Source: a virus (Duplodnaviria > Caudoviricetes). Taken from it: DNA of 64,000 nt. The translations under genes and the position numbers were made by a program. The DNA is taken from IMG/VR virus record IMGVR_UViG_3300027749_000034; one strand, 5' to 3'. The notes beneath the pieces were generated by a model. It was not told the origin of the DNA and searched no databases. It was given only the letters and a program-made list of their open reading frames with translations. Below, piece by piece: positions 1,128-56,821 of this stretch; the stretch's first letter is position 1, and every line of letters starts with the position of its first letter.

Positions 1128-1306
1128 TGGATTGGTTACGCTATAGCGGCCTATGGATAACTGTAATTTTCAACCCATTCCATTGGCGCATTTCTTACTG
1201 CATTGATTCAACCCAGGCCGAATGGCCAAGCCCCAGTCGCCGAGAAATTGTAATACAGGTCATCATGCTGTCATTCAGGCTAGTTGTCGACAATGGTGAC
1301 TGGTAA
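1127..1306 (+). CDS. small hypothetical protein (59 aa, MDWLRYSGLW...)
   Basis: TAATG overlap with upstream gene, fills the gap exactly. Confidence 0.65.
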   Translation: MDWLRYSGLWITVIFNPFHWRISYCIDSTQAEWPSPSRREIVIQVIMLSFRLVVDNGDW

Positions 1307-1309
1307 GTA
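1304..1309 (+). promoter_or_regulatory. T4-late-like promoter box
   Basis: TAAGTA-N5-ATG(1315). Confidence 0.55.
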
Positions 1310-1314
1310 TCGTT

Positions 1315-2277
1315 ATGAAATACGGCCTAGACGAAAACGACAAATATTGGATTGAATATACCAGCCTGCCCAGACCCATTGGAAACATGCGGCAAGAATT
1401 GGATTTGGCCTGTCAGCGCATTGCCAACGAAAGGAAAACAATAATCAGTCTAAGCAGTGGTTTAGACAGCCAAGTTGTACTGCATAGCTTTATACAACAA
1501 GGCTTGCCACATGAATGTGCGTTTATGTATCATCCTGGCTTTAATGATTCTGAATTTCAAAATATTAAAATCTTAGAGAAAAAATACAACTTTAAATGCA
1601 ATATCATTGACATTGATCCAATGGCTATAAAAGATGAAATAGAAGCGTTGTCGACTGCAACAAGGATACCACCACAACATCATATCAAAGCAAAATTTCT
1701 AGACCAACTTGATCAAGCTTGTCATGTGCTAGAAGGTCCAGAAAACCCAGACCTATTTGTAAACAACAACAATTTAAAATTGTCAGCCGCCGATGAGGGT
1801 ACTTGGCGCATGATGGAAAGTTACAATGCCATTGACACAACATCAGCTTGGTTCCATGCAAATCGACAAAACCCCACTGTGTATTTAGATAGACGAAGTT
1901 TGCATCAGGAATTTGCCATCAGCATGCTGATTGACGACATTGCAGTGGCCTATAGGCATGCATTTCCATATATTAAAGAAAACGGCATGGTAGATCCAAA
2001 AACTGGAAAAGCACCATTGTGGATCATCTGGGGCTGGGGCCTGTATATCAAGCCTATTCAATTTGGCAAGTATTGGGGCAATGAGCTAGAATATTTTCCA
2101 AAATTTGCTGTGCAAAAAGAAATAGATTATGTAGCAACTCCCAAAGTAATACACGACTATCTGGCACGAGTAATTTTCATCGACCTAGACCGGCACTTGG
2201 AGTTGATGTGCGATTATGGATCAAATCGCACAATAAAGCATACGCAAACATATATACAAAATGCAAAAAACATTTAA
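1315..2277 (+). CDS. PP-loop (adenine nucleotide alpha-hydrolase) ATPase, Asn-synthetase-like
   Basis: ISLSSGLDS motif near N-terminus. Confidence 0.65.
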   Translation: MKYGLDENDKYWIEYTSLPRPIGNMRQELDLACQRIANERKTIISLSSGLDSQVVLHSFIQQGLPHECAFMYHPGFNDSEFQNIKILEKKYNFKCNIIDIDPMAIKDEIEALSTATRIPPQHHIKAKFLDQLDQACHVLEGPENPDLFVNNNNLKLSAADEGTWRMMESYNAIDTTSAWFHANRQNPTVYLDRRSLHQEFAISMLIDDIAVAYRHAFPYIKENGMVDPKTGKAPLWIIWGWGLYIKPIQFGKYWGNELEYFPKFAVQKEIDYVATPKVIHDYLARVIFIDLDRHLELMCDYGSNRTIKHTQTYIQNAKNI

Positions 2278-3469
2278 TAAAAATCTAGGTTATTATGTAT
2301 GTAATGATATTGATTTTCATTCTAAAATTGAAGCATGTATATATGGAACAAAAGTCAACCAGCCAGTACGCTGGATGTTCAACAACGCAGTTTTTAACTC
2401 ACACAATTGGGCAGTGGAACCTAGTGAAACATTAGATCAGTTGTATGATTCCCGTGCAAGACAGCTTCGTGAAAAGTATGACTATGTTATATTAAGCTAC
2501 TCGGGCGGCGCAGACAGCAACAACATCTACGAAAGCTTTCGTAGACAAGGCCTGCACATTGATGAAATTGTAGTTAATACAATGACAAAGGCCAGCGAAA
2601 AGTTTATTACAGTAGATGCAAACAGTAAAAATTCTTACAATGGTCCAGAAAGCGAACATCAATTGCATTTGTTGCCGCGCTTACGCACAATCGAAAATGA
2701 AATGCCTCGAACCAAGATTCGTATCTTTGATCTAAGTGACACATTATTTGAAAGCCTGGCCAACACAGATGAAAGTTGGGTATTGAATCAAAAGGAAGGT
2801 CTTAATCCAATTGGTATTACACGATTTAACTATCTGAGTTTTGATGAAGTCAAGCGTGATTTTGACCGCGGCAAGAGTACTTGTTTAATTACAGGAGTTG
2901 AAAAGCCCAGAGTTATAATTCGAGAAAACAATTTATTAATGCGGTTCAACGATCGTAGTGCCAATATCAACACAGTGGCAGAGCATATCAAAGAATATGA
3001 AAACTGCACAGTGGAATATTTTTATTGGGCTCCAGAAAGTGTGCGTATGTTGATCAAGCAAGGACATGTTATCAAGAAATATCTAGAGGCGTTCCCTGCT
3101 CAACAAGAATTTTGGCTAGAACACAGAGTTACTCCAGCGTTGACACGCCTGATGCACGAGCGTGTGTTAAGAAATCTGCTGTACACAACCTGGCAAGAAG
3201 AGTGGTTTCAGGCAGACAAAGCAGTGAGTGATTGGTACAGTGAGTTTGATCGTTGGTTCATTGATCATTACAAAGACACGTCAGCTTGGCGAAATTGGCA
3301 TGCTGGTATTGACTATGTTAAGAACAATTTAAAACCATTTTTAAAATCAAATGGACGCGGAATTCCAGACGGTTTAAAGCCAGTGGCACACATTTATAAT
3401 CTTGGACCAATCAAATTAGCAACCAACACATGGCTAATTGGAGAAAGCGGACAAAACAGACCACCATGA
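2261..3469 (+). CDS. PP-loop ATPase, Asn-synthetase-like
   Basis: ILSYSGGADS motif. Confidence 0.7.
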   Translation: MQKTFNKNLGYYVCNDIDFHSKIEACIYGTKVNQPVRWMFNNAVFNSHNWAVEPSETLDQLYDSRARQLREKYDYVILSYSGGADSNNIYESFRRQGLHIDEIVVNTMTKASEKFITVDANSKNSYNGPESEHQLHLLPRLRTIENEMPRTKIRIFDLSDTLFESLANTDESWVLNQKEGLNPIGITRFNYLSFDEVKRDFDRGKSTCLITGVEKPRVIIRENNLLMRFNDRSANINTVAEHIKEYENCTVEYFYWAPESVRMLIKQGHVIKKYLEAFPAQQEFWLEHRVTPALTRLMHERVLRNLLYTTWQEEWFQADKAVSDWYSEFDRWFIDHYKDTSAWRNWHAGIDYVKNNLKPFLKSNGRGIPDGLKPVAHIYNLGPIKLATNTWLIGESGQNRPP

Positions 3470-4107
3470 CATATAAAAACTACCATATTCCAATGCCCAA
3501 GTTCAATCCAACAGAGGCCGAACAGAAATGGGCATTGGAGAATATTGCACCCGAGTTGGAGCCAGCATTGAAATTGATCAAAGGTGCATTTGACAGAGTT
3601 GACGTGCCGCAAGAGTTATTTAGACCATGGCCTCAGCGTGATGCAGTACTGGCGCACTTTGATGAATTAAAATTGGAATTTAAAAGATTTGCCGGTTTTA
3701 TTTCACATCCTGGTCAATGCCCCAAGAGTGCTCATATAGATGCACTTGAACGCGGTGTAGCAATGGTAGCCCGTTTTAATATTCCCATACAAGGATTAAG
3801 TCCAGTCACACTGGATTGGTGGAATGACGGAATTGACAGCGATCGAATTGGCGAGCGTGTGTTCACTGAACTTAGAAATGGCGTAGAAAAACCAGCCTAC
3901 AGCTTTAAATCTCTAATAGATGACTGGGGTACCACCCCAGCGTTTACGGTGCTAGATCCAGGAGCATGTTGGAACAGGACTGAAATTGCACACAGAGCAC
4001 AAAGCCCCAACTGTGCTGTCAGCAGGATTCAAATCACAGCAGAAGTTAAACAACAAATTGCCTGGACTGAATTGGTTGCCAGACTAGAACGCCTGGGCTA
4101 CTGTTGA
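3466..4107 (+). CDS. cupin/2OG-Fe(II) oxygenase-like hypothetical
   Basis: AHID (HxD) and distal IAHRA; ATGA overlap with upstream gene. Confidence 0.45.
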   Translation: MTYKNYHIPMPKFNPTEAEQKWALENIAPELEPALKLIKGAFDRVDVPQELFRPWPQRDAVLAHFDELKLEFKRFAGFISHPGQCPKSAHIDALERGVAMVARFNIPIQGLSPVTLDWWNDGIDSDRIGERVFTELRNGVEKPAYSFKSLIDDWGTTPAFTVLDPGACWNRTEIAHRAQSPNCAVSRIQITAEVKQQIAWTELVARLERLGYC

Positions 4108-4111
4108 CCCA

Positions 4112-7188: not shown

Positions 7189-7280
7189 GGAAGTGTGGCC
7201 GAGTCCGGTTTATGGCACTAGTCTTGAAAACTAGCGGAGGGTTAAACCTCCCGTGAGTTCGAATCTCACCGCTTCCGCCA
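7189..7280 (+). tRNA. tRNA-Ser(TGA)
   Basis: Cloverleaf, CTTGAAA loop, long variable arm, GCCA. Confidence 0.92.
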
Positions 7281-7287
7281 TGTCAAT

Positions 7288-7362
7288 GGGCCAGTAGCTT
7301 AATGGTAAAGCAACCGACTCATAATCGGTCGAGTCTTGGTTCAATTCCAAGCTGGCCCACCA
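7288..7362 (+). tRNA. tRNA-Ile2/Met(CAT)
   Basis: CTCATAA loop, GGGCC acceptor resembling Ile2, ACCA. Confidence 0.85.
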
Positions 7363-7368
7363 GTTTAT

Positions 7369-7443
7369 GCCCTGTTAGTTCAACGGATAGAATTAGAGTC
7401 TTCGAAACTCAGGATGGTGGTTCGATTCCATCACAGGGCGCCA
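7369..7443 (+). tRNA. tRNA-Arg(TCG)
   Basis: CTTCGAA loop, GCCA end. Confidence 0.88.
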
Positions 7444-7446
7444 AGT

Positions 7447-7646
7447 TTTGTTAGAGTGTCAGCAAGAGAAAGACTCGCTAGAAGGCTTCTTCGAAGGGCC
7501 GACTAATGTTAAAGAAGGACGGGTTCAAGTCCCGTAAACGCAGTGGAGCACCTTTGTCCTGTATCCCAAGTGACTTACCGAATCCCGCTCGAGCTTGTTA
7601 ATTCGGGTGAATGGTGCTTATAATGTGGTAGCACTACTTTAACAAA
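7447..7646 (+). ncRNA. unclassified 200-nt multi-branched RNA with T-arm
   Basis: 12-bp end-to-end stem, ACGGG-TTCAAGT-CCCGT T-arm, GAGCACC/GGTGCTT and further helices; sits between two tRNAs. Confidence 0.65.
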
Positions 7647-7654
7647 TTCAACAT

Positions 7655-7732
7655 GTACAGATGCCCGAGAGGCCCAAGGGAACTGATTGCAAACCAGTAA
7701 AGCCGTCGGTTCAAATCCGACTCTGTACTCCA
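7655..7732 (+). tRNA. tRNA-Cys(GCA)
   Basis: TTGCAAA loop, U73 discriminator, CCA. Confidence 0.9.
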
Positions 7733-7733
7733 A

Positions 7734-7808
7734 GGTAATGTAGCATAATGGTAGTGCGCCTGCTTCATACGCAGTCCAGTGCTAGTTCGACTCTAGCCAT
7801 TACCACCA
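7734..7808 (+). tRNA. tRNA-Met(CAT)
   Basis: TTCATAC loop, GGTAATG/CATTACC acceptor, ACCA. Confidence 0.88.
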
Positions 7809-7828
7809 ATTTTATAGGAGAGCCTGTT

Positions 7829-7966
7829 ATGGCCAGTGTCAAGAAAGGAACGATGACTCGTTCACCACAGTGGTGGAAACACCTTAAAGAATGGAAGCGT
7901 GTGTTCTGGAAAGCAGAACGACAAGCTCACAAAAAAGCGGGTATAGCTCAGTTGGTAGAGCAGTAG
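7829..7966 (+). CDS. 45-aa basic hypothetical protein ending inside tRNA-Lys
   Basis: GGAG SD; MASVKKGTMTRSPQWWKHL...; stop TAG lies within the tRNA. Confidence 0.6.
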   Translation: MASVKKGTMTRSPQWWKHLKEWKRVFWKAERQAHKKAGIAQLVEQ

Positions 7967-8012
7967 ACTTTTAATCTATTGGTCGTGGGTTCGAATCCCT
8001 CTGCCCGCACCA
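7937..8012 (+). tRNA. tRNA-Lys(TTT)
   Basis: Canonical cloverleaf, CTTTTAA loop, ACCA. Confidence 0.95.
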
Positions 8013-8025
8013 ATAAATAGTTGTA

Positions 8026-8370
8026 ATGAAAATTCAGCAAGACAGCACCGGACTTTATATTGAAACAGATGAAGTAGTCTGTCGTCCAGTTGAATCAAGT
8101 CAATTCAAATCAGATGAAGAGGTTCGGCTGGCACTTGATGCTGAAATAGCCACGGTCAGTGATGCCAATGATCGCGGTGCAAATGCCTTTGAAGAACAGT
8201 GGCAAGCAGTATACAAATCTCAGCCGGCTAGAGTTACGTCAGCGCCGGTAACTCATCCACCCATGTATTATGTAGAACACACAGGTTGGTATACTGCAAT
8301 CATAATCCTACTGGGCGTCACTGGGTTTGACCTTGGTCTTCTTGTTGGCACCATCTGGGCCAGGCTTTAA
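8026..8370 (+). CDS. hypothetical protein with C-terminal TM
   Basis: ORF; TAAATA-N6-ATG. Confidence 0.65.
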   Translation: MKIQQDSTGLYIETDEVVCRPVESSQFKSDEEVRLALDAEIATVSDANDRGANAFEEQWQAVYKSQPARVTSAPVTHPPMYYVEHTGWYTAIIILLGVTGFDLGLLVGTIWARL

Positions 8371-8501
8371 TTCCAACGGTTGAAACTGCAACTTGGCTTT
8401 GGCCAGAAGAGCATCTGGTTTAAAGTCTGCAGGTAAACACCAGGTGGCGCTGGGCAACAATTTAGATTTAACACTCATACAGTATTTAAGATCATTTAGG
8501 T

Positions 8502-8574
8502 GTGACCTTAGTGTTAGCGGTCAGCACCTCGGATTGTGATTCCGATAGGATGGGTTCAAATCCCATAGGTCACC
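8502..8574 (+). tRNA. tRNA-His(GTG), atypical (no G-1, no CCA, extended helix)
   Basis: TTGTGAT loop, C73, followed by CCT. Confidence 0.8.
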
Positions 8575-8591
8575 CCTAAACGATCTTTATT

Positions 8592-8667
8592 GCCAAGATA
8601 GCTCATCTGGTAGAGCACCTGTTTGAAGCACAGGGTGTGGTTGGTTCGAGTCCAACTCTTGGTACCA
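8592..8667 (+). tRNA. tRNA-Phe(GAA)
   Basis: TTGAAGC loop, ACCA. Confidence 0.9.
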
Positions 8668-8676
8668 AGTTTCTGT

Positions 8677-8750: not shown

Positions 8751-8769
8751 AATTTATAAGTAAGTTTAT

Positions 8770-8846
8770 AGCCTCATAGCTCAGTTGGTTAGAGCATTGT
8801 CTTGATAAGGCAAGGGTCCCCTGTTCGAGTCAGGGTGAGGCTACCA
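8770..8846 (+). tRNA. tRNA-Ile(GAT)
   Basis: CTGATAA-type loop (TTGATAA), ACCA. Confidence 0.9.
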
Positions 8847-10245: not shown

Positions 10246-10821
10246 TTATATAAAAATCTTAGATGCCAATAATTCATACGGCATCAGTTTATTTGTTGCG
10301 TCAGTCACTGTGAAAGAGACTGTGTATCGAGTTTCTTCCGTGGTTGTTACATTGTGTGGAATTCCAGTTTGTACAATGTTGTATCCAACAAGATGTTTGC
10401 TGTACAGCAAATTTACCTGATCTGCCGTAAAGCTTGCATAATTGTTTGAATAGTTATTTTTACGAGATATCTTTGTTACTTTTGGTGTGTACCAATTAAG
10501 CACTCCGCCACTGGAGTTGGAAATGTAATTGATCTTGGCCATATTTCCTGGCATCATGTAATCTGCATCAGCGCCATCGGTATGAATCATTGAGGTAAAA
10601 TTAGTTGGGTAGTAAAAAAGCTCGCAACCACGAACCAGCAAGCCCCTTCCTGCCAAGAAGCTGATCACATTGTGGTCAATGTACTTGGAAACTGTAGAAT
10701 CTTTTGAATTAAAAATAGTAGACCTATTGTAAACACCTTTGGCACTAATTAATTTCAACAGGCGTAATCCAGATACAGATAACGGACCATAAGATAAGCT
10801 GAAGTTTTTATACAATTCCAT
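10246..10821 (-). CDS. cupin/2OG-Fe(II) oxygenase-like protein
   Basis: IHTDG...IPHNV; start ATG 10821 preceded by TAAATA-N4. Confidence 0.55.
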   Translation of the reverse strand: MELYKNFSLSYGPLSVSGLRLLKLISAKGVYNRSTIFNSKDSTVSKYIDHNVISFLAGRGLLVRGCELFYYPTNFTSMIHTDGADADYMMPGNMAKINYISNSSGGVLNWYTPKVTKISRKNNYSNNYASFTADQVNLLYSKHLVGYNIVQTGIPHNVTTTEETRYTVSFTVTDATNKLMPYELLASKIFI

Positions 10822-10843
10822 GCGATATTTATTCAACAAGTCA

Positions 10844-11001: not shown

Positions 11002-11166
11002 ATGAAGCCAGGTAAAACATTTCGATTAAGCAAAACAACCAAGCGAATGCTATGTAGCATTGTTGATACAACCAAGCGTAATGCTTGGAAGGCCGCAATG
11101 ATTCAAGCAGAGTTGGCCGCAGGTGTAGTTGTCAAGAGAGAGCCAAAAGAAGGACAGCGTAAGTAA
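11002..11166 (+). CDS. 54-aa basic hypothetical protein
   Basis: MKPGKTFRLSKTTKRM...; fills the gap between tRNAs. Confidence 0.65.
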   Translation: MKPGKTFRLSKTTKRMLCSIVDTTKRNAWKAAMIQAELAAGVVVKREPKEGQRK

Positions 11167-11175
11167 AGTTTTTTT

Positions 11176-11259
11176 GCCCCGGTGGTGTAATGGTAGCCAC
11201 GCTGGTCTTAGAAGCCAGTGCCGAAAGGCGTGTCGGTTCGAGTCCGACCTGGGGCACCA
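11176..11259 (+). tRNA. tRNA-Leu(TAG)
   Basis: CTTAGAA loop, GCC-GAAA-GGC variable arm, ACCA. Confidence 0.93.
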
Positions 11260-12432: not shown

Positions 12433-12463
12433 CAACCCTAGAACTACTGCAAATAAGTATCTC

Positions 12464-12988
12464 ATGTCATTGTTCAGTATAAACGGAATTGGTCCAACAG
12501 TTGATTCATCTGCCTATGTACATGAGTCAGCAACCATAATTGGTCACTGCCAAATTGGCAATAATTCCTCAGTCTGGCCCGGCGCAGTGATACGAGCAGA
12601 CAATGACAAGGTATTCATTGGCAACTGTGTCAATGTTCAAGACGGCACAGTAATTCATGTTGATGACAATCATCCGGTGGTGTTAGAAGATGGAGTCAGC
12701 ATTGGACATATGGCCATGATTCATGGTGCAACAGTAAAGGAAAATACATTGATTGGTATGCAAGCAATAATATTAAACAATGCAATCATTGGAAAGAACT
12801 GTATCATTGGCGCCAATACTGTTATTGCCTCCGGAAAAATAATTCCTGACAATTCGTTGGTTGTTGGTACCCCAGGAAAAGTAATAAGACAAGTGACAGA
12901 CGCTGAAGTAGAAAACAACCGTCGCAATGCGGATGTGTATGCATCAAAGGCTGTGCATTACAAAACAAATTTGATTAAGGTAGGATAA
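12464..12988 (+). CDS. gamma-class carbonic anhydrase family (hexapeptide repeat)
   Basis: VIRADND, NVQDGTVIH, IGHMAMIHG; start 12464 after TAAGTA-N4. Confidence 0.88.
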   Translation: MSLFSINGIGPTVDSSAYVHESATIIGHCQIGNNSSVWPGAVIRADNDKVFIGNCVNVQDGTVIHVDDNHPVVLEDGVSIGHMAMIHGATVKENTLIGMQAIILNNAIIGKNCIIGANTVIASGKIIPDNSLVVGTPGKVIRQVTDAEVENNRRNADVYASKAVHYKTNLIKVG

Positions 12989-15636: not shown

Positions 15637-16279
15637 TTGAATTCCAAGGCTGGCACGACCTGACACTTAAAATTACCCTAGGTTGTCGGCCAGTCCAGTT
15701 TAACGCATGGAGTCTATCAGTTCTAACAAAGCTGGCATGTTGTTGTATCTTGGTTAAATTATTTGCCTTTGCCACTGGATCGCCAACCGTGCTCCATCTA
15801 TCTTCCAAACTTTTGCCGCGAGCTTGTAATCTTCCAACCAATTCATTGCGTTGGTTTGGAAACTGTATAGTTTCAACTCGATGATCACGCCAGTCTATAT
15901 CCCACCAAACCATTTCAGTGTTATCTTCGCCAGTGATCAGTATATTGAATCGAATTGGTACCTCTATATCAACTCCAGTTTTTCCAGTGGTGTCAATATG
16001 TGGATTTCCTAAAATTACGTCTCTTGGCTTTGGTAACCTTTTGTAAACAAACAATTGCGGCGATGGATCAACAATTCCATAACTACTCATTGCGTTGACA
16101 ATTTCTTTCCATGCTTCGCTTGCTATCAATCTATCTGATTGCACACTATTAAAATGCAATAATCCGTTATTCAGCGGCGCTGTGATTTGATAGTCCAATA
16201 CAATTGGTGCAACAAATTCTCTCAGCCAGGCAAAATTTATAGGACTTAGGGCAAACGGAACAGTTACAAACGGAGTCAT
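15626..16279 (-). CDS. cupin/2OG-Fe(II) oxygenase-like protein
   Basis: PHIDT...LHAL; TAAATA-N5-ATG. Confidence 0.5.
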   Translation of the reverse strand: MTPFVTVPFALSPINFAWLREFVAPIVLDYQITAPLNNGLLHFNSVQSDRLIASEAWKEIVNAMSSYGIVDPSPQLFVYKRLPKPRDVILGNPHIDTTGKTGVDIEVPIRFNILITGEDNTEMVWWDIDWRDHRVETIQFPNQRNELVGRLQARGKSLEDRWSTVGDPVAKANNLTKIQQHASFVRTDRLHALNWTGRQPRVILSVRSCQPWNSIIL

Positions 16280-16303
16280 ACTGATATTTAGTCTATAAAT
16301 AGG

Positions 16304-18328: not shown

Positions 18329-18522
18329 TCGGGCAGGCCTGTAATTGGATCAACCTTTGAACCCCATTTGCCCAAAGGACAGTAACTGAATTTGAGACCA
18401 GTTTTCCATGGCAGGTAGCACCAGCACTTTTTGCACACATCTGTCACAGGATGACGATGCTCGCAGGTGTTACAAATGCTCAGTCTTCTTTGCTTTTCAG
18501 TTTCTTCTGATTTGATTGACAT
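18316..18522 (-). CDS. small Cys-rich protein (DUF6171-like)
   Basis: RLSICNTC...CKKCWC...CPLGKW; TAAATA-N4-ATG. Confidence 0.7.
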   Translation of the reverse strand: MSIKSEETEKQRRLSICNTCEHRHPVTDVCKKCWCYLPWKTGLKFSYCPLGKWGSKVDPITGLPDHNP

Positions 18523-18534
18523 GGATTATTTATT

Positions 18535-18786: not shown

Positions 18787-19052
18787 AAATCAGTCTGGCT
18801 TACTGTTATCACCGATTGTGTGCTACCTCCAGGTCCTGTAGCAGTGAATAAAAAAGTGGCACCTCTACCATATGTTAGACGACTAACAAAGAAGCCGCTG
18901 GTATTAGTTAATGCAAGTGAGCCTGAAATTGAGCTACATGTTAATCTAGTTGCATTCATAGTGCTCCACAGAAGGAAAATTCTTCTTTGGCCAGGAATGT
19001 ATCCTTGAATTATAGCCCGTACAGAAAGTAAAGGTTTTGGTGTAAGCGGCAT
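18783..19052 (-). CDS. hypothetical protein (possible structural/Ig-like)
   Basis: Start ATG 19052 after TAAATA-N5; TATGPGGST motif. Confidence 0.5.
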   Translation of the reverse strand: MPLTPKPLLSVRAIIQGYIPGQRRIFLLWSTMNATRLTCSSISGSLALTNTSGFFVSRLTYGRGATFLFTATGPGGSTQSVITVSQTDF

Positions 19053-19159
19053 AACAATATTTACCGAAATTGTCCGGATTGTGTCAACGGTAGTGTTGAT
19101 CAAGGCGTTATATATGTATACAGACAATAATGTGTGTATAAACAACTTAAGGAAATATC

Positions 19160-19647: not shown

Positions 19648-19697
19648 CCTTGAAAAAGTAGGTAAATATATGCCTACACCTTTAAGGAGGATATGTT

Positions 19698-19811
19698 ATG
19701 TTAGAAACTTTATTTTGGTTTGCACTAGGTGCGTTCGTTGGTTGGAATTTTCCACAACCTGATTTTGCCAAATCAATTCAGGCAAAAGTACTAGGAATGT
19801 TTAAAAAATGA
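19698..19811 (+). CDS. 37-aa membrane peptide
   Basis: AGGAGG SD; MLETLFWFALGAFVGWNFPQP. Confidence 0.7.
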   Translation: MLETLFWFALGAFVGWNFPQPDFAKSIQAKVLGMFKK

Positions 19812-23592: not shown

Positions 23593-24208
23593 ATTCCAGC
23601 AAGAGTTGATGGTGAGTACCCCCGTGGTACTTGCCCGTCATCCAACTGTATCCATCATACCAGAACTGTTCGCTTTCTGGATGACAACCAATTAGACCAA
23701 TACGGTTTTGTATTATCGCCATAGCATCATTATTAGCATATTTGGCAATGGTGTCGTGATATCCTGCACCAACTAAAGCACAGCCATCATACCAGAACAT
23801 GTTCATAGGTTTTCCTAACCAGTCAATTGAAATGTTTTTTGCATGTGGCCTGCGTGTATCAGTTCCAGGACGAGTTATGTATTGTACTGCATCAATGTCT
23901 TTTAAGATATTAAAATAGTGTGAGCCTGCCCAGTAGGCACCCATACAAATTCCCAAATACCGCCCGCCATCCTTAACAAATTGCCGAACTCGTTCACCGT
24001 TGTATTTGAACAAGTTCTCAAAGCTGTCGGCATCACCTATTCCACCAGGCACAGCAATTATATCAACATTGTTGAAAAATACATCTTCTACTGCATTTTT
24101 TCCAAACACTTTAAAATTGTAATATTGCCCAAGTGCATTCATTATACCATTTCCACTTTGCACTGAACATTTTGGATCAGCTAAAAATAGTGCTACAGTG
24201 GGCTTCAT
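23567..24208 (-). CDS. BPL_N / class I glutamine amidotransferase-like protein
   Basis: VPGG, YLGICMGAY, HPE; TATAAATA-N4-ATG. Confidence 0.8.
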   Translation of the reverse strand: MKPTVALFLADPKCSVQSGNGIMNALGQYYNFKVFGKNAVEDVFFNNVDIIAVPGGIGDADSFENLFKYNGERVRQFVKDGGRYLGICMGAYWAGSHYFNILKDIDAVQYITRPGTDTRRPHAKNISIDWLGKPMNMFWYDGCALVGAGYHDTIAKYANNDAMAIIQNRIGLIGCHPESEQFWYDGYSWMTGKYHGGTHHQLLLEFTDSLLKQ

Positions 24209-24251
24209 GATCTATTTATATAGATAAATACTTGTCAAGGAGGACTCAACC

Positions 24252-24410
24252 ATGAAACAGAAAAAGCTACTGGCTAAACTGTACAGGGCTTGCGTCGACC
24301 ATGATACAGAAACCATTGCTGAACTCCGTCAAAAAGAGTTTGCAAAGATACTGAAACACAAGGCCGAAGGTAAGTCATTTACAACAAAATGGACTTTGGT
24401 TAGGATTTAG
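24252..24410 (+). CDS. 52-aa hypothetical protein
   Basis: AAGGAGG SD after TAAATA box. Confidence 0.7.
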
Positions 24411-24460
24411 TGTAACAAAACAGTAACACAAAAATCCACAATTGGGCGATAAGTAATGGT

Positions 24461-25240
24461 ATGACAGCCAAAACTTATCGCTCAATTTTTGTTTCCGATG
24501 TACATTTAGGCACTAGAGATTGTAAAGCTGGACAGCTGAACAATTTCCTTAAACACAACAGTTGTGATACATTATATCTAGTAGGCGATATAATTGATGC
24601 ATGGAAGATTCAACAAAACAAATGGCGTTGGAAACAAAGCCACACCAATGTTGTTCGTAGAGTATTGGGACATGCCAAGCGTGGTACTCGAGTTGTATTC
24701 ATTGCCGGCAATCATGATGAGTTTTTGAGACCCATGATACCATATGGATTTAGTTTTGGCCTGGTGGAAATACACAATCAAATAGAACACATAGGTGCTG
24801 ATGGTCGACACTATCTTGTTACACATGGCGACCTGTTTGACGGTATCACAAGATTGGCACCGTGGATAGCATTTTTAGGAGACAAGGCATATGATATCAT
24901 TTTATCGCTTAATAGCAAATACAATTGGCTACGTCATCGTATGGGTTTTGGGTACTTTAGTCTTAGTCAGTATCTCAAAGCAAGAGTAAAGAAAGCAGTG
25001 GACTTTATATTCCACTTTGAAAAAAATCTAGCCACCTATTGTAAAAAGCGTGGATATGATGGAGTCATATGTGGACACATACACCACGCGGAAATAAAAG
25101 AAATAGATGGCATCATATATATGAACGACGGTGACTGGGTAGAATCGTGTACTGCACTTGTAGAACATCATGACGGTCGTTGGGAAATAATTACATGGAC
25201 CAAAAGCAATGACAAAGACAATACTGATAATAACAGATAA
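24461..25240 (+). CDS. PlcP/LpxH2-like metallophosphoesterase (putative phospholipase C)
   Basis: SDVHLG, GDIID, GNHDE, HGD, GHIH; adjacent GT4. Confidence 0.8.
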   Translation: MTAKTYRSIFVSDVHLGTRDCKAGQLNNFLKHNSCDTLYLVGDIIDAWKIQQNKWRWKQSHTNVVRRVLGHAKRGTRVVFIAGNHDEFLRPMIPYGFSFGLVEIHNQIEHIGADGRHYLVTHGDLFDGITRLAPWIAFLGDKAYDIILSLNSKYNWLRHRMGFGYFSLSQYLKARVKKAVDFIFHFEKNLATYCKKRGYDGVICGHIHHAEIKEIDGIIYMNDGDWVESCTALVEHHDGRWEIITWTKSNDKDNTDNNR

Positions 25241-39428: not shown

Positions 39429-39434
39429 TAAGTA
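39429..39434 (+). promoter_or_regulatory. T4-late-like promoter box heading the radical SAM array
   Basis: TAAGTA-N6-ATG(39441). Confidence 0.6.
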
Positions 39435-39440
39435 GTGTTA

Positions 39441-41099
39441 ATGAATTTCTTTGACAAAATTTCCAAGCAAGTAAAAGAGCCGCCTAAGAGAAAAGACTTT
39501 GGTTATACTGAGTATTTTCAAAAGGCAGAGAACATGCGAGACAACCTGGACAAAATTAGTCCAACAATGTGTCTGGCCAAGTGGTTACAAGTCAGTATCA
39601 ATCTGGCCAACGGTACCACACAAAGTTGTTATCATCCGCCTCCGCATGCTATTCCACTACTAGAGCTCAAAGAAAATCCCAGCGCATTGCATAACACCAA
39701 GTTCAAAAAACAAGAACGAGAACTAATGTTGACTGGCAAGCGGCCAGAAGGTTGTAGTTACTGTTGGCGTGTGGAAGATGCACCTGGTGGTGGCCCACAA
39801 GGACACCTTAGTGATAGACATTACAAGTCCAGCGAAGACTGGGCCGCCCCTGACTTTCGCAATGTAGTTCTAAAGGAGGCCGATTTCGATATTGTTCCAC
39901 GATATGTCGAAGTGAATTTTAATCAGGCTTGTAATTTCAAATGCATGTACTGTAGTCCTCATATCAGTACAGCATGGGAAGAAGAAATCAAACAGCATGG
40001 ACCTTACAACTTTGACTTGCCGGGCAAAAACAAGGTTGATCATAACAATCTACGCAATTTAAAAGTTTCAGGATACATGCCGCTAGAAGTTGCTGTCAAA
40101 GATAATCCTTATGTGACAGCATTTTGGAAATGGTGGCCAGACATTTATCGTACACTACGAGTATTTCGTATGACTGGCGGCGAACCATTGATGGATCGGA
40201 ATACCTTTAAGGTGTTGGACTATGTGAATGAGAATCCACATGGACAATTAGAACTAAGCATTACCAGCAACATGTGTCCGCCGGATCAAAAGTTATTTGA
40301 CAAGTTTATTAGCAAAGTACAGGCCATTGAAGTCATACGCACTTATGAAGATACTGAAAACTTCAACAAGTTCAGTGGCAATCATTGGTATGTGGACAAG
40401 GGCTTTAAACATTTCTGGTTATACATCAGCTTGGACGGAGTAGGTCAGCAAGCAGAATATATGCGTACTGGTTTAGACTATGCAAGATTAATGTCCAACA
40501 CTAGAAAGTTCTTAGCTGAAACTAAGTACACCACTGTCAGTTTCATCAACACCTTTAACATACTGTCAATTCCAAGTTTAAAAAGTTGGTTGCAAATGAT
40601 ATTAGATTTGCGAGTAGAATTCGGCGGCCGGAATCAAACTGAGTTTGAAATTGCTCCAGAACCAACAGAGCACGAAAAAGAACATGGCATTGAACACAAG
40701 AAGTATTTCCAAAAGAAGTTCCAAAGAATATTTTTAGACATACCATTGCTAAAATACCCCAACTGGTTTGATCCACAAAATGCAACGCCAACCTTGATTG
40801 CAACCATTGAAGATTGCTTGGAGTTTATGCGTAGCAATGCACAGCAAGAAGATTACAGAGAAACATTTGAAGGTTTCAAGCCACATGAGATATTGAAACT
40901 TGAAAGAAATCTAGCTATAATTAAAGAAGGCAAAGACCCTGCCGCTGTTCAAACGAATAGATTACAATTTTATCAATACATAAATGAGTATGATAGACGC
41001 AGAGATACTGCCTTCTTAGAAGTTTTTCCGGAGATGAACTCCTACTACAATGAATGTAAGTTGTTACAAATGAGAATAGACGATGCCAAAGAAACATAA
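39441..41099 (+). CDS. radical SAM protein, N-terminal twitch-like domain (array 1)
   Basis: CLAKW...SCYH...CSYCW; CNFKCMYC; GGEP. Confidence 0.9.
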   Translation: MNFFDKISKQVKEPPKRKDFGYTEYFQKAENMRDNLDKISPTMCLAKWLQVSINLANGTTQSCYHPPPHAIPLLELKENPSALHNTKFKKQERELMLTGKRPEGCSYCWRVEDAPGGGPQGHLSDRHYKSSEDWAAPDFRNVVLKEADFDIVPRYVEVNFNQACNFKCMYCSPHISTAWEEEIKQHGPYNFDLPGKNKVDHNNLRNLKVSGYMPLEVAVKDNPYVTAFWKWWPDIYRTLRVFRMTGGEPLMDRNTFKVLDYVNENPHGQLELSITSNMCPPDQKLFDKFISKVQAIEVIRTYEDTENFNKFSGNHWYVDKGFKHFWLYISLDGVGQQAEYMRTGLDYARLMSNTRKFLAETKYTTVSFINTFNILSIPSLKSWLQMILDLRVEFGGRNQTEFEIAPEPTEHEKEHGIEHKKYFQKKFQRIFLDIPLLKYPNWFDPQNATPTLIATIEDCLEFMRSNAQQEDYRETFEGFKPHEILKLERNLAIIKEGKDPAAVQTNRLQFYQYINEYDRRRDTAFLEVFPEMNSYYNECKLLQMRIDDAKET

Positions 41100-47569: not shown

Positions 47570-47575
47570 TAAATA
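47570..47575 (+). promoter_or_regulatory. T4-late-like promoter box
   Basis: TAAATA-N5-ATG(47581). Confidence 0.6.
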
Positions 47576-47580
47576 TCGCT

Positions 47581-48900
47581 ATGAACACTGAATTTAACCC
47601 GCTAGAATTGGCCAAGAAAAGTAGAACCTTCTGTATCCTGCCTTGGATCCATCAATATGTAGGACCACCTGGAGATGTCAAGCCCTGCTGTGTATACGAA
47701 CACAAGGAACAAATTGGCAGTCTCAAACAAAATACACTAAAAGAAATTTGGAACAATGACGCTACGCGGACCATGCGCCTGAAATTTCTAAACGGTGAAG
47801 AAGATGCCAACTGTGGTCGTTGCAACAGCAGAGTTGAATTGGAAGCTGAATTTAAAAATAAATTTAACGATGACTTCTTTAAGAACAATCAAGCTGTACA
47901 CTCAATTGTGGCCGCAACCAATCCTGATGGTAGCCTAGACGAACACAAGTTGATCTACATGGATGTGCGTTTTAACAATCTATGTAATCTAGGGTGCCGC
48001 AGTTGTGGTCCACACTTTAGCACCAGTTGGATTGTGGATAGTCGCAAGCTGTACAACAAGAAGACCAAAGAATCAATCAATGATGAATTCCAGTTTCCAG
48101 GGCAAACAGAAGAACAAGCACTAGAAGAAATGATGCCGCATCTGCCCACAATGAAAAGCATTTATTTTGCCGGTGGCGAACCATTGATGCAAAAAGAACA
48201 CTACGAAACACTGAACAAGCTGGTAGAGCTGGGTAATTCGCAATGCGGTATTAGATACAATACAAACTTCAGTAAACTGACCCTGGGCAAACATGATGTG
48301 ATTGAATATTGGAAAAACTTCAAGGATATCAATGTCAATGCCAGTCTGGATGGCAGTTATGCCAAAGCAGAATACTGGCGTCACGGTACTGTATGGAAGG
48401 ATGTTGTGGCCAACAGATTGCGAATGCGCGAACAAGCGCCACATGTTAGATTCAACATTGGCTTTACGCTCAGTTGGCCCAACGCTCACAACCTGATTGA
48501 ATTCCACAGAGAATGGGTAGAGCTGGGTTATATTCACCCAGATAACATCTTATTAAATGTTCTAGATGGACCAAGCTATTACTCGTTAAAGAATATTCCA
48601 GACTGGAAGAAGCATCAAATTGAAAAGCTTTTTAGAGAACAAATGACATGGCTACAGGAACGAGGATGCAACAAACAAACCCTGTTCATGTACGAAACAG
48701 CTATTGGGTTTATGTGGCAAGTACGCTCACTTGAAACTTATAAGATTACAAACCTGCACGACAGTTTGAAGAACTTTAGTCGCATTACCAAGAAGCTGGA
48801 TACAATTCGCGGAGAAGATTTTTGGAAAACATTTCCAGAGCATGCTGATATGCGAGACTACATGACCGAGCATGATCTACACGACGAATTTGATTACTAA
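47581..48900 (+). CDS. radical SAM protein (array 7)
   Basis: CILPW...PCC...CGRC; CNLGCRSC; GGEP. Confidence 0.9.
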   Translation: MNTEFNPLELAKKSRTFCILPWIHQYVGPPGDVKPCCVYEHKEQIGSLKQNTLKEIWNNDATRTMRLKFLNGEEDANCGRCNSRVELEAEFKNKFNDDFFKNNQAVHSIVAATNPDGSLDEHKLIYMDVRFNNLCNLGCRSCGPHFSTSWIVDSRKLYNKKTKESINDEFQFPGQTEEQALEEMMPHLPTMKSIYFAGGEPLMQKEHYETLNKLVELGNSQCGIRYNTNFSKLTLGKHDVIEYWKNFKDINVNASLDGSYAKAEYWRHGTVWKDVVANRLRMREQAPHVRFNIGFTLSWPNAHNLIEFHREWVELGYIHPDNILLNVLDGPSYYSLKNIPDWKKHQIEKLFREQMTWLQERGCNKQTLFMYETAIGFMWQVRSLETYKITNLHDSLKNFSRITKKLDTIRGEDFWKTFPEHADMRDYMTEHDLHDEFDY

Positions 48901-50153
48901 TGAATGAGCAAAAACTATTTAAAATTCGTCAGGCAACAAGTCCAACATTTTGCTTGGCCAAGTTTCACGAAGCAAGTATCTGGGTATACTCAGGCAAGAT
49001 AGCCAGCTGTCATTATACGCCATTCCTACAGGTTGGCACCACAGTTGACACATTCTACAATCCGCCAGAAAAACGCAGTCACCAACAGAGTATGCTGGCC
49101 GGAGAACAGCCGCCTGCATGCAACAGTTGCTGGCATTTTGAGAATCTTGGCTTGACCAGTGATCGTACTCGCAAAAGCCTGGCATTTACGGATCACTTGA
49201 CAGCAGAGGAATACTTTGATCCTGCTTACAACTTTAAACCAAAAGCATTGGAGTTGGCATTTCAAAACACCTGCAACCTGGCCTGTAGCTATTGCAGTCC
49301 ACAGTTCAGCACCAGCTGGATCAATGATATTCGAACTCGAGGTGTATACACTGGAATCATCACAGACGACCGCAAGCACTATCAAAAGGATCTGAGTGAA
49401 CTGGATGAAATGATTGCGCCCCCAGATATGACATTGTTCTGGCAGTGGTTTGAAACAGTTGCTCCAGGACTAGAAAGTATTCGTGTCAGTGGTGGTGAAC
49501 CACTCATGCACGAAGAAGTATTCAAACTGTTTGACCGGATGACCGAAATAAATCCCAATATTGAATGTGTCGTACACACTAACCTTTGTCAAAAGCCCGT
49601 GGTAATTGAACGCTTCTTAGAAAAAGCCAAGCGATTAAACAACCTGCGTGTCAATGTCAGCAATGAAAGTGCAGGTGCTGTGGCAGAGTTTATTCGCGAA
49701 GGCATGGTCTACGATGAATGGTTGCATAATATGGAATTATTATGCAACAGCAATGTCAGCGTGGCCACAGTCAGCACAACCTGTAGCGCAATTAGCCTAC
49801 AAGCCCTGGATCGAATGTATATTGACATCATTAAAATGCGAGAGCGCACTCGTATTAAACCAGCTGTCACTATTAATATGGTAGACAAACCAGACTTCCA
49901 GGGCTTTGGTTGTTTAAGCAGAGCAGACAGAGACTTTTATATCAAAAAATACACTGCCTTCTATGCCACGATTCAAAATGATTTACTTCCATTTGAAGTA
50001 GAGTACGCTGAACGATTGATTAAAATGTTAGATGCGGGGCTTATTAAAGATAACCAAGCGGCATTGCGTAAGGATAGCGATACATTCTTTGAACAGTACA
50101 CACAGCGAAGAAACAAGCCTGTTAACTTTGCACAATTTATAGGCAAAGTATGA
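48900..50153 (+). CDS. radical SAM protein (array 8)
   Basis: CLAKF...SCH...CNSCW; CNLACSYC; GGEP. Confidence 0.9.
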   Translation: MNEQKLFKIRQATSPTFCLAKFHEASIWVYSGKIASCHYTPFLQVGTTVDTFYNPPEKRSHQQSMLAGEQPPACNSCWHFENLGLTSDRTRKSLAFTDHLTAEEYFDPAYNFKPKALELAFQNTCNLACSYCSPQFSTSWINDIRTRGVYTGIITDDRKHYQKDLSELDEMIAPPDMTLFWQWFETVAPGLESIRVSGGEPLMHEEVFKLFDRMTEINPNIECVVHTNLCQKPVVIERFLEKAKRLNNLRVNVSNESAGAVAEFIREGMVYDEWLHNMELLCNSNVSVATVSTTCSAISLQALDRMYIDIIKMRERTRIKPAVTINMVDKPDFQGFGCLSRADRDFYIKKYTAFYATIQNDLLPFEVEYAERLIKMLDAGLIKDNQAALRKDSDTFFEQYTQRRNKPVNFAQFIGKV

Positions 50154-53775: not shown

Positions 53776-54938
53776 TATATGACCTGACAAAGATACGCAG
53801 AGTACAGATAGAATTATCCAGCAGGTGCAATGCCAGCTGTCCTGCATGCAGTCGCAACTACAGCGGCGGTCCAGTTGTAGCTGGTTTTGAACAGGTTGAT
53901 CTAAGTACCAACGACATGCGGACATTTTTCTCTCCAGAAATAATTAAAAATATAGAACACATCAACTATTGTGGCAATTTAGGTGATCCGGGCATAGTCA
54001 AAGACTTACCCGACACTTTATTGTATTTTAAAGTGCATGGCAATAAAAATTTAAAGCAGGTGGTGCGGACCAACGGTGGCATGCGTGGCACCGAGCATTG
54101 GGCCAAGATTGCCCAACTGTTGCCCAAGCCCAATATCAAGCCAGAATTTGCATTCACCAACAGCGGAGTGGTGTTTGGAGTCGACGGATTAGAAGACACC
54201 AATCACATTTATCGACGCGGTGTTGTGTGGAACAAGGTCTGGGCCAATATGAAAGCATACAGCGAAGCAGGTGGGTATGGTATTTGGGAGTATTTGATTT
54301 TTGATCACAATAAACATCAAGTTGATGAAGCTCGAGCATTGGCCGACACACTGGGCTTTACTTTTATTCTTAAAACTCCACTGGGGTTCGGCGAAAATGA
54401 GGGAATTCAACGAGCACTGAATGTGCATGACAAAAATGGAGATTACGAATATTCTATTTGGCCGCATGACTTTGCAGGCGAAAAAATAATACCCAAAGCG
54501 CATAAGACATTTAAGATCAGTTCTATTGTTGGAACAGTTCCGATACTAAGCGAATACAGTAGACAATTGGGCAAGGAATCTATAATCAAATGTAAATCAT
54601 TTGAATATCCAGAACATCAGGAAATTTTTATATCGGCCAGCGGGCATTTGTTGCCCTGCTGTTACCTTGGCGGCGCATTTGGTCAAAAAAATACCAGTTA
54701 TGCAAGATATCAATTCAATGAAAAAATTGATAAAACAGGATTAGATGAATTTGACCTTAGAAAACACAGCCTGGTTGACATATTGTCCGGCCCCAAATTC
54801 AACAACTTCTTCGACGAAGCTTGGAACAAAGATACTGTGGAAAATGGTAAAATGTTATTTTGTGCTGAAGTATGTGGTCAAAAGAGTTCGCATGATAAAA
54901 TATACACAAAAGGAACAACTAATGGTCCAACAGTATAA
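53772..54938 (+). CDS. radical SAM protein with C-terminal SPASM/twitch-like Cys
   Basis: CNASCPAC; GNLGDP; C...PCC...CAEVC. Confidence 0.9.
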   Translation: MIYDLTKIRRVQIELSSRCNASCPACSRNYSGGPVVAGFEQVDLSTNDMRTFFSPEIIKNIEHINYCGNLGDPGIVKDLPDTLLYFKVHGNKNLKQVVRTNGGMRGTEHWAKIAQLLPKPNIKPEFAFTNSGVVFGVDGLEDTNHIYRRGVVWNKVWANMKAYSEAGGYGIWEYLIFDHNKHQVDEARALADTLGFTFILKTPLGFGENEGIQRALNVHDKNGDYEYSIWPHDFAGEKIIPKAHKTFKISSIVGTVPILSEYSRQLGKESIIKCKSFEYPEHQEIFISASGHLLPCCYLGGAFGQKNTSYARYQFNEKIDKTGLDEFDLRKHSLVDILSGPKFNNFFDEAWNKDTVENGKMLFCAEVCGQKSSHDKIYTKGTTNGPTV

Positions 54939-54962
54939 ATATAGCTTTAAAGAACCTTATAA

Positions 54963-55778
54963 ATGAAAAAAATTATTATATCAGCATTGTTTCTTTGCTC
55001 CACATTGAGTCACGCTTGGGAACAAAGACCACCACTACCACCACAGGCATGTGCAGTACATGCACCCTATGGATTCCCACAAACAGCAGGTGTACAACCC
55101 ATTTGCCGCCAGGCTTACCTGGTAGGTTATGATGCCGCTGCCAAACTACCAAAATATGTCACATATGAACTGTTGCCGCAGAATGCACTAGGTTGCGTTG
55201 CCCGCACAAATGCATTTGTGCAAGATCAAAGCATACAAAATGGACCACGCCCAGATGACTATGCGGCCACCGGTTACGACAAAGGACACATGAGTCCTGA
55301 CGGTGATTTGTCGTGGGATGTGCAAGTTGAGTTTGAGTCATTCCTAATGACCAACATGAGTCCACAAGCAGGAAGTTTAAATCGCGGAATTTGGAAACTA
55401 TTAGAAACTAGTGTGCGTGGATGGGCAGTTCAACTTAATCAACCCTTTACAATTTATGTTGGCGGCGTTTACAATGCTCAAGACAAGAAGATTGGTAATG
55501 GTGTAGTTGTTCCGCACGGCTTCTACAAAATTGTCATCAACAATGCCACAAAACAAACAGCAGGATGGGCATTTCCCCATGTTGCACCTTACCCAAATTT
55601 AGGAAATGATTTGACTAAATATCGTATGCCTGTAGCACAGATAATGCAAACGGCAGGGGTAAATTTTGCTTTCCCACCAGGGGCAGTCGAACTTGCACCC
55701 GGACAGGAATGGCCAGTTGATTTTGGTATGTTAACCAATGCGAAACGGGCAAAATGTGGTGCTAGCGCATCACCTTAA
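54963..55778 (+). CDS. secreted DNA/RNA non-specific endonuclease
   Basis: Signal peptide; YDKGH, NMSPQ, LNRGIWKLLE. Confidence 0.9.
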   Translation: MKKIIISALFLCSTLSHAWEQRPPLPPQACAVHAPYGFPQTAGVQPICRQAYLVGYDAAAKLPKYVTYELLPQNALGCVARTNAFVQDQSIQNGPRPDDYAATGYDKGHMSPDGDLSWDVQVEFESFLMTNMSPQAGSLNRGIWKLLETSVRGWAVQLNQPFTIYVGGVYNAQDKKIGNGVVVPHGFYKIVINNATKQTAGWAFPHVAPYPNLGNDLTKYRMPVAQIMQTAGVNFAFPPGAVELAPGQEWPVDFGMLTNAKRAKCGASASP

Positions 55779-55794
55779 CTTAAGGATTAATAAA

Positions 55795-56034
55795 ATGTCA
55801 AATTGGACCAAAAACGGTGAACCAACAACTTACGAAGCATTGCTTTCTGTATTCTTAGTATACGAAGAAAACATGCCCGAAGATGATAGAGAAAAATGCA
55901 GAGCCGCCAAAGATGCTGTGATGGCAGTTGAAGGCGATGGCAAGGCAATTATGCCACAAGATGACCCGGCCAAACAAGTTTGGCAAATGTACTTTGGCAG
56001 TTGGATGGACGCCAATGGCGTTAAATTTGAATAA
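55795..56034 (+). CDS. hypothetical protein
   Basis: AAGGA SD, ATG 55795. Confidence 0.7.
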   Translation: MSNWTKNGEPTTYEALLSVFLVYEENMPEDDREKCRAAKDAVMAVEGDGKAIMPQDDPAKQVWQMYFGSWMDANGVKFE

Positions 56035-56048
56035 GATTTAATTTAATA

Positions 56049-56078
56049 AAAAGAAATGGGCTTCGGCCCATTTCTTTT
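56049..56078. terminator. bidirectional intrinsic terminator
   Basis: AAAAGAAATGGGC-TTCG-GCCCATTTCTTTT. Confidence 0.9.
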
Positions 56079-56095
56079 GACCTATAAGTAGTTGC

Positions 56096-56821
56096 ATGGA
56101 TGCATACATTTTACTACATGGCAAACACAGCGGCAATAGAGAAAATCATACACTTTTTCAGCTGAGCAATGAGTTATTAGAACATGGGCTGGTTGATTAT
56201 CAGGCCTACGCCTGGAGTGAATTGGATAACAAATGCTATCATAATAGATTTGAAACTTGTAAAGATCAAATTGATTCGGCCATTGTTGATTTAAAATCTC
56301 AAGGTGCTACCAGAATATTTTTAATTGGGCACAGCATGGGAGCCAATGCGGCTCTGTATTATATTTCTCAACAGGTCAATTCAGTTGACGGTGTTGTGCT
56401 ATTATCGCCTGCACACAATGTGCATTTGCCCATGTTTGCCAAAATACACAGTTGGAGTGTAGCACATGCCAAAAACATGATTGACGCCGAGTCGGGCGAT
56501 GTTGAATCACATTTTGCAGACTACGACAGCAACGGATCCATTGTGGTATTAAAATGCACAGCGGCAAATTATTATTCGATGCTGAATCCTGAAGGTCCTG
56601 CCAACATGCGAACCAGTGTGGAAAATCTAAATTGGCCTGCCAATGTGTTGGTCATCAGTGGCGAAAGAGATATCACACAAAAACTTTTCTTTGAATCAAT
56701 TTATTTGAATTTAAAAATCAAATCAAACAAAAACAAATATGTGCTGATTCCCGACGGCACACATGTTGGTGTGGCCAGAACCAAACTCACAAAAATTCTA
56801 AATTGGATCGACACTTTGTAA
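56096..56821 (+). CDS. alpha/beta hydrolase
   Basis: GHSMG nucleophile elbow, distal GERD and THV; TAAGTA-N5-ATG. Confidence 0.8.
   Translation: MDAYILLHGKHSGNRENHTLFQLSNELLEHGLVDYQAYAWSELDNKCYHNRFETCKDQIDSAIVDLKSQGATRIFLIGHSMGANAALYYISQQVNSVDGVVLLSPAHNVHLPMFAKIHSWSVAHAKNMIDAESGDVESHFADYDSNGSIVVLKCTAANYYSMLNPEGPANMRTSVENLNWPANVLVISGERDITQKLFFESIYLNLKIKSNKNKYVLIPDGTHVGVARTKLTKILNWIDTL

Follow-up and report, generated by a model that had tools for sequence, protein, structure and literature searches.

Late transcription of the T4 type is a textbook system, in which a leader with a Shine-Dalgarno (SD) site normally follows the promoter, and the cI gene of phage lambda is the classic single case of a leaderless messenger RNA (mRNA). 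The T4 late promoter, TATAAATA, is read by gp55 together with gp33 and the gp45 clamp (PMC2988020, PMC7892883), and cryo-electron microscopy has demonstrated that gp55 flips out the bases A-12, A-9 and A-8, with pockets lined by residues N13, H95, Y97 and T99 (PMC7892883). For the Rak2-like jumbo phages CBB and GAP32, a putative late motif ATAAATA upstream of structural genes and a gp55-like sigma factor have been described in a paper in which leaderless mRNAs are not mentioned (PMC5259590). According to the summary of Sevostyanova et al. (2007) in PMC3594737, middle and late transcripts of Thermus phage phiYS40 are mostly leaderless, and alterations of IF2 and IF3 have been reported for this system. 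In Deinococcus-Thermus, a -10 element commonly adjoins open reading frames (ORFs) (PMC12340547), and passages of PMC8459731 state that leaderless mRNAs need an unstructured 5' end. No account of late mRNAs without leaders in T4-like phages was found in the literature. The present analysis concerns the 64-kb stretch of DNA of the virus record IMGVR_UViG_3300027749_000034, in its whole length called the window, and a hexamer, TAA(A/G)TA (TAARTA, the box), which stands 4-6 nucleotides (nt; N4-6) before the ATG of twelve genes. An earlier note, made from the sequence alone, regarded these genes as a leaderless late regulon. The results indicate that (A)TAA(A/G)TA is probably the core of a gp55-type late promoter fused to start codons, giving leaderless mRNAs.

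All twelve genes named in the earlier note are present, seven on the plus and five on the minus strand, and their coordinates agree (Table 1); four of them have an N4 spacer, six N5 and two N6. The window has about 102 candidate ORFs; a clear SD precedes 53 of them and the box precedes 12. At eight of the twelve sites, the reading frame offers no ATG, GTG or TTG further upstream, so that the boxed ATG is forced as the start there, without an SD; alternative upstream starts exist at 12464 and 19052 (several) and at 10821 and 39441 (one or two). Three useful relatives were found in IMG/VR. G001 and G002 are colinear contigs of about 92-96 kb, with roughly 80-93% nucleotide identity to the window, G001 standing at about 85%, and G003 is a 352-kb contig, complete according to CheckV, whose radical SAM protein is 61% identical to that of the window. 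Motif enrichment, which the note had proposed as a check, proved strong against a composition-matched background, both in the window and in the relatives. The hexamer itself is depleted in the window (44 copies on both strands vs 77.9±8.6 expected from second-order Markov simulations), and the full TAARTA-N4-6-ATG pattern was observed 15 times, with 5.1±2.2 expected from Markov simulations. When box-to-ATG pairs were counted for ORFs of at least 60 codons and spacings of 0-30, N4-6 held 12 of the 18 pairs in the window (binomial P=7e-9), and the same test gave P=2e-10 in G001 and 1e-12 in G003. An unbiased hexamer scan of the zone from -12 to -5 before start-proximal ATGs of the window recovered TAAATA (7 vs 0.15 expected), TAAGTA (5 vs 0.09) and, besides these, SD variants only. 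Both hexamers are enriched beside SD variants also in G001 and G003, and the scan of T4, PA5oct, Phosso and Atu_ph07 yielded SD variants only. The preference is restricted to ATG, as GTG and TTG after the box are not enriched (N4/N5/N6 of 2/2/0 in G003, vs 15/23/6 for ATG). Moreover, box-led ORFs show less structure over their first 25-45 nt than SD-led ORFs do (P=1e-5 pooled, P<0.01 per genome group), in keeping with what leaderless mRNAs require (PMC8459731); mean folding energies over 45 nt are -2.5 and -4.2 kcal/mol, respectively (P=3e-6).

The arrangement is conserved. Eight sites are alignable with G001, and all of these retain box, ATG and spacer length, with a changed spacer sequence at five; at 1315 and 47581, for example, box and ATG are preserved and the spacer is altered. 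The G003 ortholog of gene 1315, at 319671(-), shares only 33% protein identity with it, yet starts with TAAATA-N5-ATG. The N4/N5/N6 counts are 4/6/2 in the window, 4/11/2 in G001 and 15/23/6 in G003, where the resulting 44 genes constitute about 10% of ORFs. More than 600 IMG/VR stretches, on contigs of up to 524 kb, encode a TerL related to that of G003, the best 80 being at least 81% identical, which looks like an abundant clade of uncultured jumbo phages. In the 915 kb pooled from these 80 loci (L100-L179), the counts reach 45/116/40. The TerL gene itself starts with TAAATA-N5/6-ATG in 16 of the 16 clade loci inspected, despite diverged upstream sequence. No N4-6 peak was observed in T4, PA5oct, CBB, Vibrio phage 2.275.O, Phosso or Atu_ph07, and four of these six genomes have a lower GC content than the window. 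The leaderless layout is thus conserved through the uncultured clade and lacking in six cultured relatives.

Since the window contains no T4 core structural gene, the placement of the box before late genes was tested in the relatives. G003 encodes homologs of T4 gp23, gp20, gp18, gp17, gp21, gp5, gp4, gp44, gp46, gp47 and UvsW, and its TerL shares 50-52% identity with the PA5oct, Phosso and Atu_ph07 proteins and 44% with the GAP32 and CBB ones, which places the lineage among T4-related jumbo phages. In G003, the box was found upstream of the genes for the portal, the sheath, TerL, the prohead protease and gp5, and not upstream of uvsW, gp44, gp46, gp47 or gp55. The search for a gp55-like sigma factor, also suggested in the note, was successful in this complete relative: a 301-aa homolog is encoded at 18026-18931(-) (phrog_234, E=1e-22). 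It aligns to T4 gp55 over the N-terminal helix and a segment resembling sigma region 2, with an insertion of about 150 residues between them, and three of the four pocket residues (N13, Y97, T99) are conserved, H95 being replaced by F. Homologs were detected in all four cultured genomes searched (T4, PA5oct, CBB and Vibrio phage 2.275.O). The gp55 open frames measure about 290-330 aa in the jumbo group (G003, PA5oct, CBB, Vibrio phage 2.275.O) and 185 aa in T4.

The geometry of the box is in agreement with this identification. The flipped bases A-12, A-9 and A-8 (PMC7892883) set TATAAATA at -13 to -6 and TAAATA at -11 to -6. The box matches the T4 late core, as the note states, and transcription from the sixth nucleotide after it, as in T4, would put +1 at the A of the ATG at the modal spacing N5. 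The base preceding the box, equivalent to A-12, is an A in 9 of the 12 window sites and in 33 of the 44 G003 sites. No -35 element is conserved: between -35 and -3, counted from the box, the position matrix of the same 44 and 12 sites is flat. The hexamer is preceded by TA at three of the twelve window sites; the full TATAAATA occurs only at 24208, and sites 39441 and 56096 carry TATAAGTA. The box is therefore a relaxed variant of the T4 octamer. An extended upstream motif was also considered, as 10821 and 47581 share 15 identical bases (TGTTGAATAAATATC), and the position matrices ruled it out.

Several observations weigh against a gp55-read promoter fused to the start codon. The gp55 homolog was found only in relatives of the window phage, and not in G001 or G002, which are fragments of about 92-96 kb. 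No match to gp33 (phrog_254) or gp45 (phrog_223) was obtained in G003, PA5oct or CBB, and the T4 control scored 1.6e-33 and 3.4e-86, respectively. The T4 activation mechanism may therefore not apply in full, but diverged analogs of both proteins may exist, given that a gp44 homolog is present in G003. G occurs at -8 (TAAGTA) in 5 of the 12 sites, where T4 has the A-8 held in the gp55 pocket, and N4 and N6 sites would need a shift of the start by one nucleotide. In the six cultured relatives, the boxes lie mostly 15-30 nt upstream and are accompanied by SDs, so the leaderless layout is no family trait. Transcript starts at the ATG are predicted positions, and four freshwater metatranscriptomes with related sequence (X1-X4), compared over 8001-28000, consist of short low-depth assembled contigs whose 5' ends are not resolvable and which are neutral in this respect.

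Some of these points could also suggest that the box is a promoter fused to the ATG but recognized by the primary sigma factor of the host or a phage factor other than gp55, which would make the mRNAs leaderless without making them specifically late. TAARTA resembles a weak -10 element, and genuine sigma70-type promoters also give leaderless starts in this phage, at 609 and 56987 (Table 1) and at 12 TATAAT-N6-ATG sites in G003, where the background is about 2. For this reason, the equation of leaderless with late in the earlier note does not hold in general. Moreover, TAARTA lies within the 17-18 nt spacers of four sigma70-type promoters (6486, 10859, 56963 and 62606, all +), for instance in TTGACA-acagtaggt-TAAATA-gtt-TATAAT; such copies may represent overlapping early and late promoters or a coincidence, and the TAAGTA in the spacer of the 56987 promoter may likewise be a coincidence or a second, late promoter. 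However, the strong TTGACA-17-TATAAT promoters form a separate, coexisting class with a modal spacing of N6, whereas that of the box is N5, a difference that follows from the -12 to -7 and -13 to -6 geometries if the A of the ATG is +1 in both. The missing -35 element, the identity of the motif with the T4 late core including the A at -12, the preference in G003 for structural genes over replication and recombination genes, and the gp55 homologs in G003 and the four cultured genomes also argue against a sigma factor of another kind, and this explanation is regarded as improbable.

Even less probable is the explanation that the box acts in translation, as an A/U-rich ribosome-loading element on mRNAs with leaders, and is not a promoter at all. 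The box occupies the place usual for an SD, A/U-rich translation enhancers are known, and the starts of box-led transcripts are only predicted. However, the hexamer cannot pair with the anti-SD, its spacing differs from that of TATAAT by exactly the one nucleotide that promoter geometry predicts, and it is depleted elsewhere in the window on both strands. The same hexamer stands 7-10 nt before two tRNA genes, and since no ORF follows the copy before tRNA-Ile, this copy speaks against a translational role. It is also found 21-53 nt before the genes 19698, 24252, 54963, 63203, 4647 and 16355, two of which (19698 and 24252) have a strong SD of their own. Finally, all five boxed minus-strand genes of at least 68 aa stand alone or at a divergent junction and need a promoter. 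A chance or AT-rich compositional artefact, to which a short AT-rich hexamer with three of its 15 matches outside the claimed set (two of them chance-like) might point, is refuted by the binomial tests, the simulations, the conservation of the sites in relatives and the missing peak in six genomes, of which four are lower in GC than the window.

Under the interpretation of the box as a gp55-type late promoter, it would constitute the -10-like core of a promoter without a -35 element, read by host RNA polymerase carrying the phage gp55-type sigma factor. In about half of the promoter-like copies of the window, the box lies 4-6 nt (mode 5) before an ATG, and the transcript, beginning at the A of the start codon, would be a leaderless mRNA without an SD, translated through recognition of its 5'-terminal AUG. 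The start-site position, the late timing in the window's genome and this mode of translation are what we infer. On read-through transcripts coming from upstream, the same ORF would carry no ribosome-binding site, and its translation would therefore likely be tied to the firing of the late promoter. A more far-reaching proposal is that in this abundant freshwater clade the fusion of promoter and ATG is a translation gate, with the ORF silent on early and read-through transcripts and translated on gp55-directed ones, and that the phage may tune host ribosomes to the 5'-AUG by means of bS21 or IF1; this is a tentative idea and, taken as a whole, rather unlikely. A bS21 homolog of 92 aa is encoded at 62306-62584(+) (PF01165, 44.1 bits vs a cut-off of 27), between ClpX and Hsp20/ClpS, and in G003 the bS21 gene sits behind a late box; IF1 homologs are encoded in G003 (274776-274991) and G002 (26470-26655), and no IF3 or S1 homologs were found. 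Remodelling of ribosomes by bS21 or IF1 was rejected as the cause of the layout: bS21 is present in PA5oct and Vibrio phage 2.275.O and IF1 in Phosso, none of which has the peak, so there is no clean correlation and neither protein tracks the layout in the eight genomes compared.

Table 1. Boxed start codons, leadered and tRNA boxes, sigma70-type leaderless starts and gene arrays of the window.
Feature	Position	Strand	Gene or remark
TAAGTA-N5-ATG	1304..1317	+	320-aa PP-loop/QueC-like ATPase, ATG 1315
TAAATA-N6-ATG	8014..8028	+	right after tRNA-Lys; 114-aa ORF 8026, no alternative start codon
TAAGTA-N4-ATG	12454..12466	+	174-aa hexapeptide-repeat (gamma-CA-like) protein, ATG 12464
TAAGTA-N5-ATG	24450..24463	+	259-aa calcineurin-like metallophosphoesterase, ATG 24461
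Terminator hairpin, then TAAGTA-N6-ATG	39429..39443	+	head of tandem radical SAM array, ATG 39441
TAAATA-N5-ATG	47570..47583	+	SPASM/radical SAM gene within array, ATG 47581
Terminator, then TAAGTA-N5-ATG	56085..56098	+	241-aa alpha/beta hydrolase, ATG 56096
TAAATA-N4-ATG	10819..10831	-	191-aa ORF without assigned function, ATG 10821
TAAATA-N5-ATG	16277..16290	-	217-aa ORF without assigned function, ATG 16279
TAAATA-N4-ATG	18520..18532	-	68-aa Cys-rich ORF 18522, weak DUF6171 match
TAAATA-N5-ATG	19050..19063	-	89-aa ORF, ATG 19052
TATAAATA (full T4 octamer)-N4-ATG	24206..24218	-	213-aa BPL_N/DJ-1-like protein, ATG 24208
TAAATA-N4-ATG, additional to the twelve	8476..8488	-	56-aa ORF 8478
TAAGTA, 7 nt before tRNA-Ile	8757..8770	+	
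TAAGTA, 10 nt before tRNA-Leu	11160..11176	+	
TAAATA, 29-nt leader with AAGGAGG SD	19663..19700	+	37-aa membrane peptide (19698-19811), ATG 19698
TAAATA, 21-nt leader with AGGAGG SD	24225..24254	+	ATG 24252
Full TATAAATA, 21-nt leader	54934..54965	+	secreted non-specific endonuclease, ATG 54963
TAAATA, 26-nt leader	63171..63205	+	ClpS, ATG 63203
TTGCTC-17-TATAAT-N6-ATG, sigma70-type leaderless	574..611	+	phosphatase-like protein, ATG 609
TTGACT-17-TACAAT-N6-ATG, sigma70-type leaderless	56952..56989	+	AAA_28 protein, ATG 56987
tRNA genes, n=16	7189-11583		
Tandem radical SAM-like genes, seven to eight	39441-50153		

The regulon described in the earlier note has to be redrawn in part. Its reading as a late regulon is supported, but leaderlessness does not define it, as the box also leads genes with SDs and tRNA genes. 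The claim that every credible minus-strand gene is boxed is correct for the five ORFs of at least 68 aa, to which the boxed ORF 8478 adds a sixth, but three weak minus-strand ORFs (5910, 8984 and 32963) carry no box. The two other pattern matches, at 36005 and 55626, are chance-like, being intragenic or before a short ORF only. The dominance of enzymes holds within this window of accessory genes and not across the clade, since TerL itself is box-led and leaderless. Among the individual labels, Pfam backs the hexapeptide transferase, the metallophosphoesterase, the radical SAM/SPASM proteins and BPL_N, and the PP-loop ATPase rests on a weak QueC-like PHROG match (4e-6). The oxygenases found no confirmation: for 10821 and 16279, Pfam gave no match even at E=1, which leaves that label unsupported, and 56096 is an alpha/beta hydrolase according to Pfam. 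The ORF at 8026 has no Pfam match at E=1 either.

The boxes before tRNA-Ile and tRNA-Leu are conserved in G001, and a portion of the tRNA array may undergo a second, late round of transcription that leaves hardly any 5' leader to be removed. A late box with a strong SD also precedes a 17-aa ORF with a CPxCG motif (27324-27377; whole arrangement 27298-27377, +), and this arrangement is conserved in G001. The TAAATA at 19663 is located in the loop of a small hairpin, GTAGG...CCTAC (19658-19677, +). At 1304-1306, the TAA of the box doubles as the stop codon of the preceding ORF (1127-1306), and ORF 16279(-) is divergent from a sigma70-type promoter at 16304-16332. The boxed genes 56096 (56085-56865) and 19052 (18763-19066) are absent from G001 together with their boxes, and one RNA contig joins 18762 to 19067, bypassing the 19052 cassette. 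Both cassettes look like modules of promoter plus gene that are gained or lost.

The source of the window is a giant phage from lake water, related to T4, with nearly all coding on the plus strand. Its further genes encode an ATP-dependent ligase, ClpX, ClpS, Hsp20 and more enzymes. A megablast search of 21 kb of the window against cultured phages revealed no near-identical cultured phage. An attempt to deduce the host from ClpX was abandoned: the best match (71%) lies on a 10.9-kb contig (L180, CAZXGO010000081.1) in a metagenome-assembled genome labelled Chitinophagales and is probably a mis-binned phage fragment, and the other matches, at about 50% identity, are spread over many phyla and are uninformative for the host. 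A Bacteroidota host looks unlikely, because the window contains three 12/12 matches to TTGACA-N16-18-TATAAT and frequent AGGAG SDs.

Summarizing, an uncultured clade appears to fuse a T4-type late promoter to the start codon of about 10-13% of its genes, TerL included, and its late regulon would extend beyond the leaderless genes. SD-dependent gene callers will misplace such starts, and up to 4 of the 12 starts in the window are affected. The host is probably proficient in translating leaderless mRNAs, and this narrows down the candidates. The clade may also offer a natural case in which the choice of promoter could decide whether a message can be translated.

In comparison with T4, the window clade has the same ATAAATA core, no -35 element, a position before structural genes, a gp55 homolog with conserved pocket residues in a relative, and a modal spacing in agreement with a predicted +1 six nucleotides past the box. 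It differs from T4 in that conservation does not extend to the first T of the octamer, G is tolerated at -8, gp33 and gp45 are undetectable in the relatives, and the gp55 homolog is about 300 aa long instead of 185 aa. T4 itself shows no N4-6 peak; it has four matches, all N5, and at least two of these concern internal ATGs preceded by more than 90 codons in frame. CBB and GAP32 share the same 7-mer, a gp55-like sigma factor, a related TerL (44% to G003) and the failure to detect gp33 and gp45, but the CBB box lies 12-30 nt from start codons and forms no N4-6 peak. As far as the summary in PMC3594737 describes it, phiYS40 is similar in being a lytic phage whose later-class mRNAs mostly lack leaders and whose -10 element abuts the start codon; it is, however, an unrelated phage of an unrelated host, and its promoters are of the host sigma type rather than the gp55 type. 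The 5'-terminal AUG, the absence of an SD, the strict use of AUG and the low-structure 5' end are features shared with the leaderless mRNAs of lambda cI (PRM), Actinobacteria, Deinococcus-Thermus and Caulobacter, as these are portrayed in passages of PMC10491246, PMC4633059 and PMC8459731. Those mRNAs depend on the -10 element of a host primary sigma factor, whereas in the window clade it is a phage late box that is fused to the ATG, in roughly 10-13% of genes.

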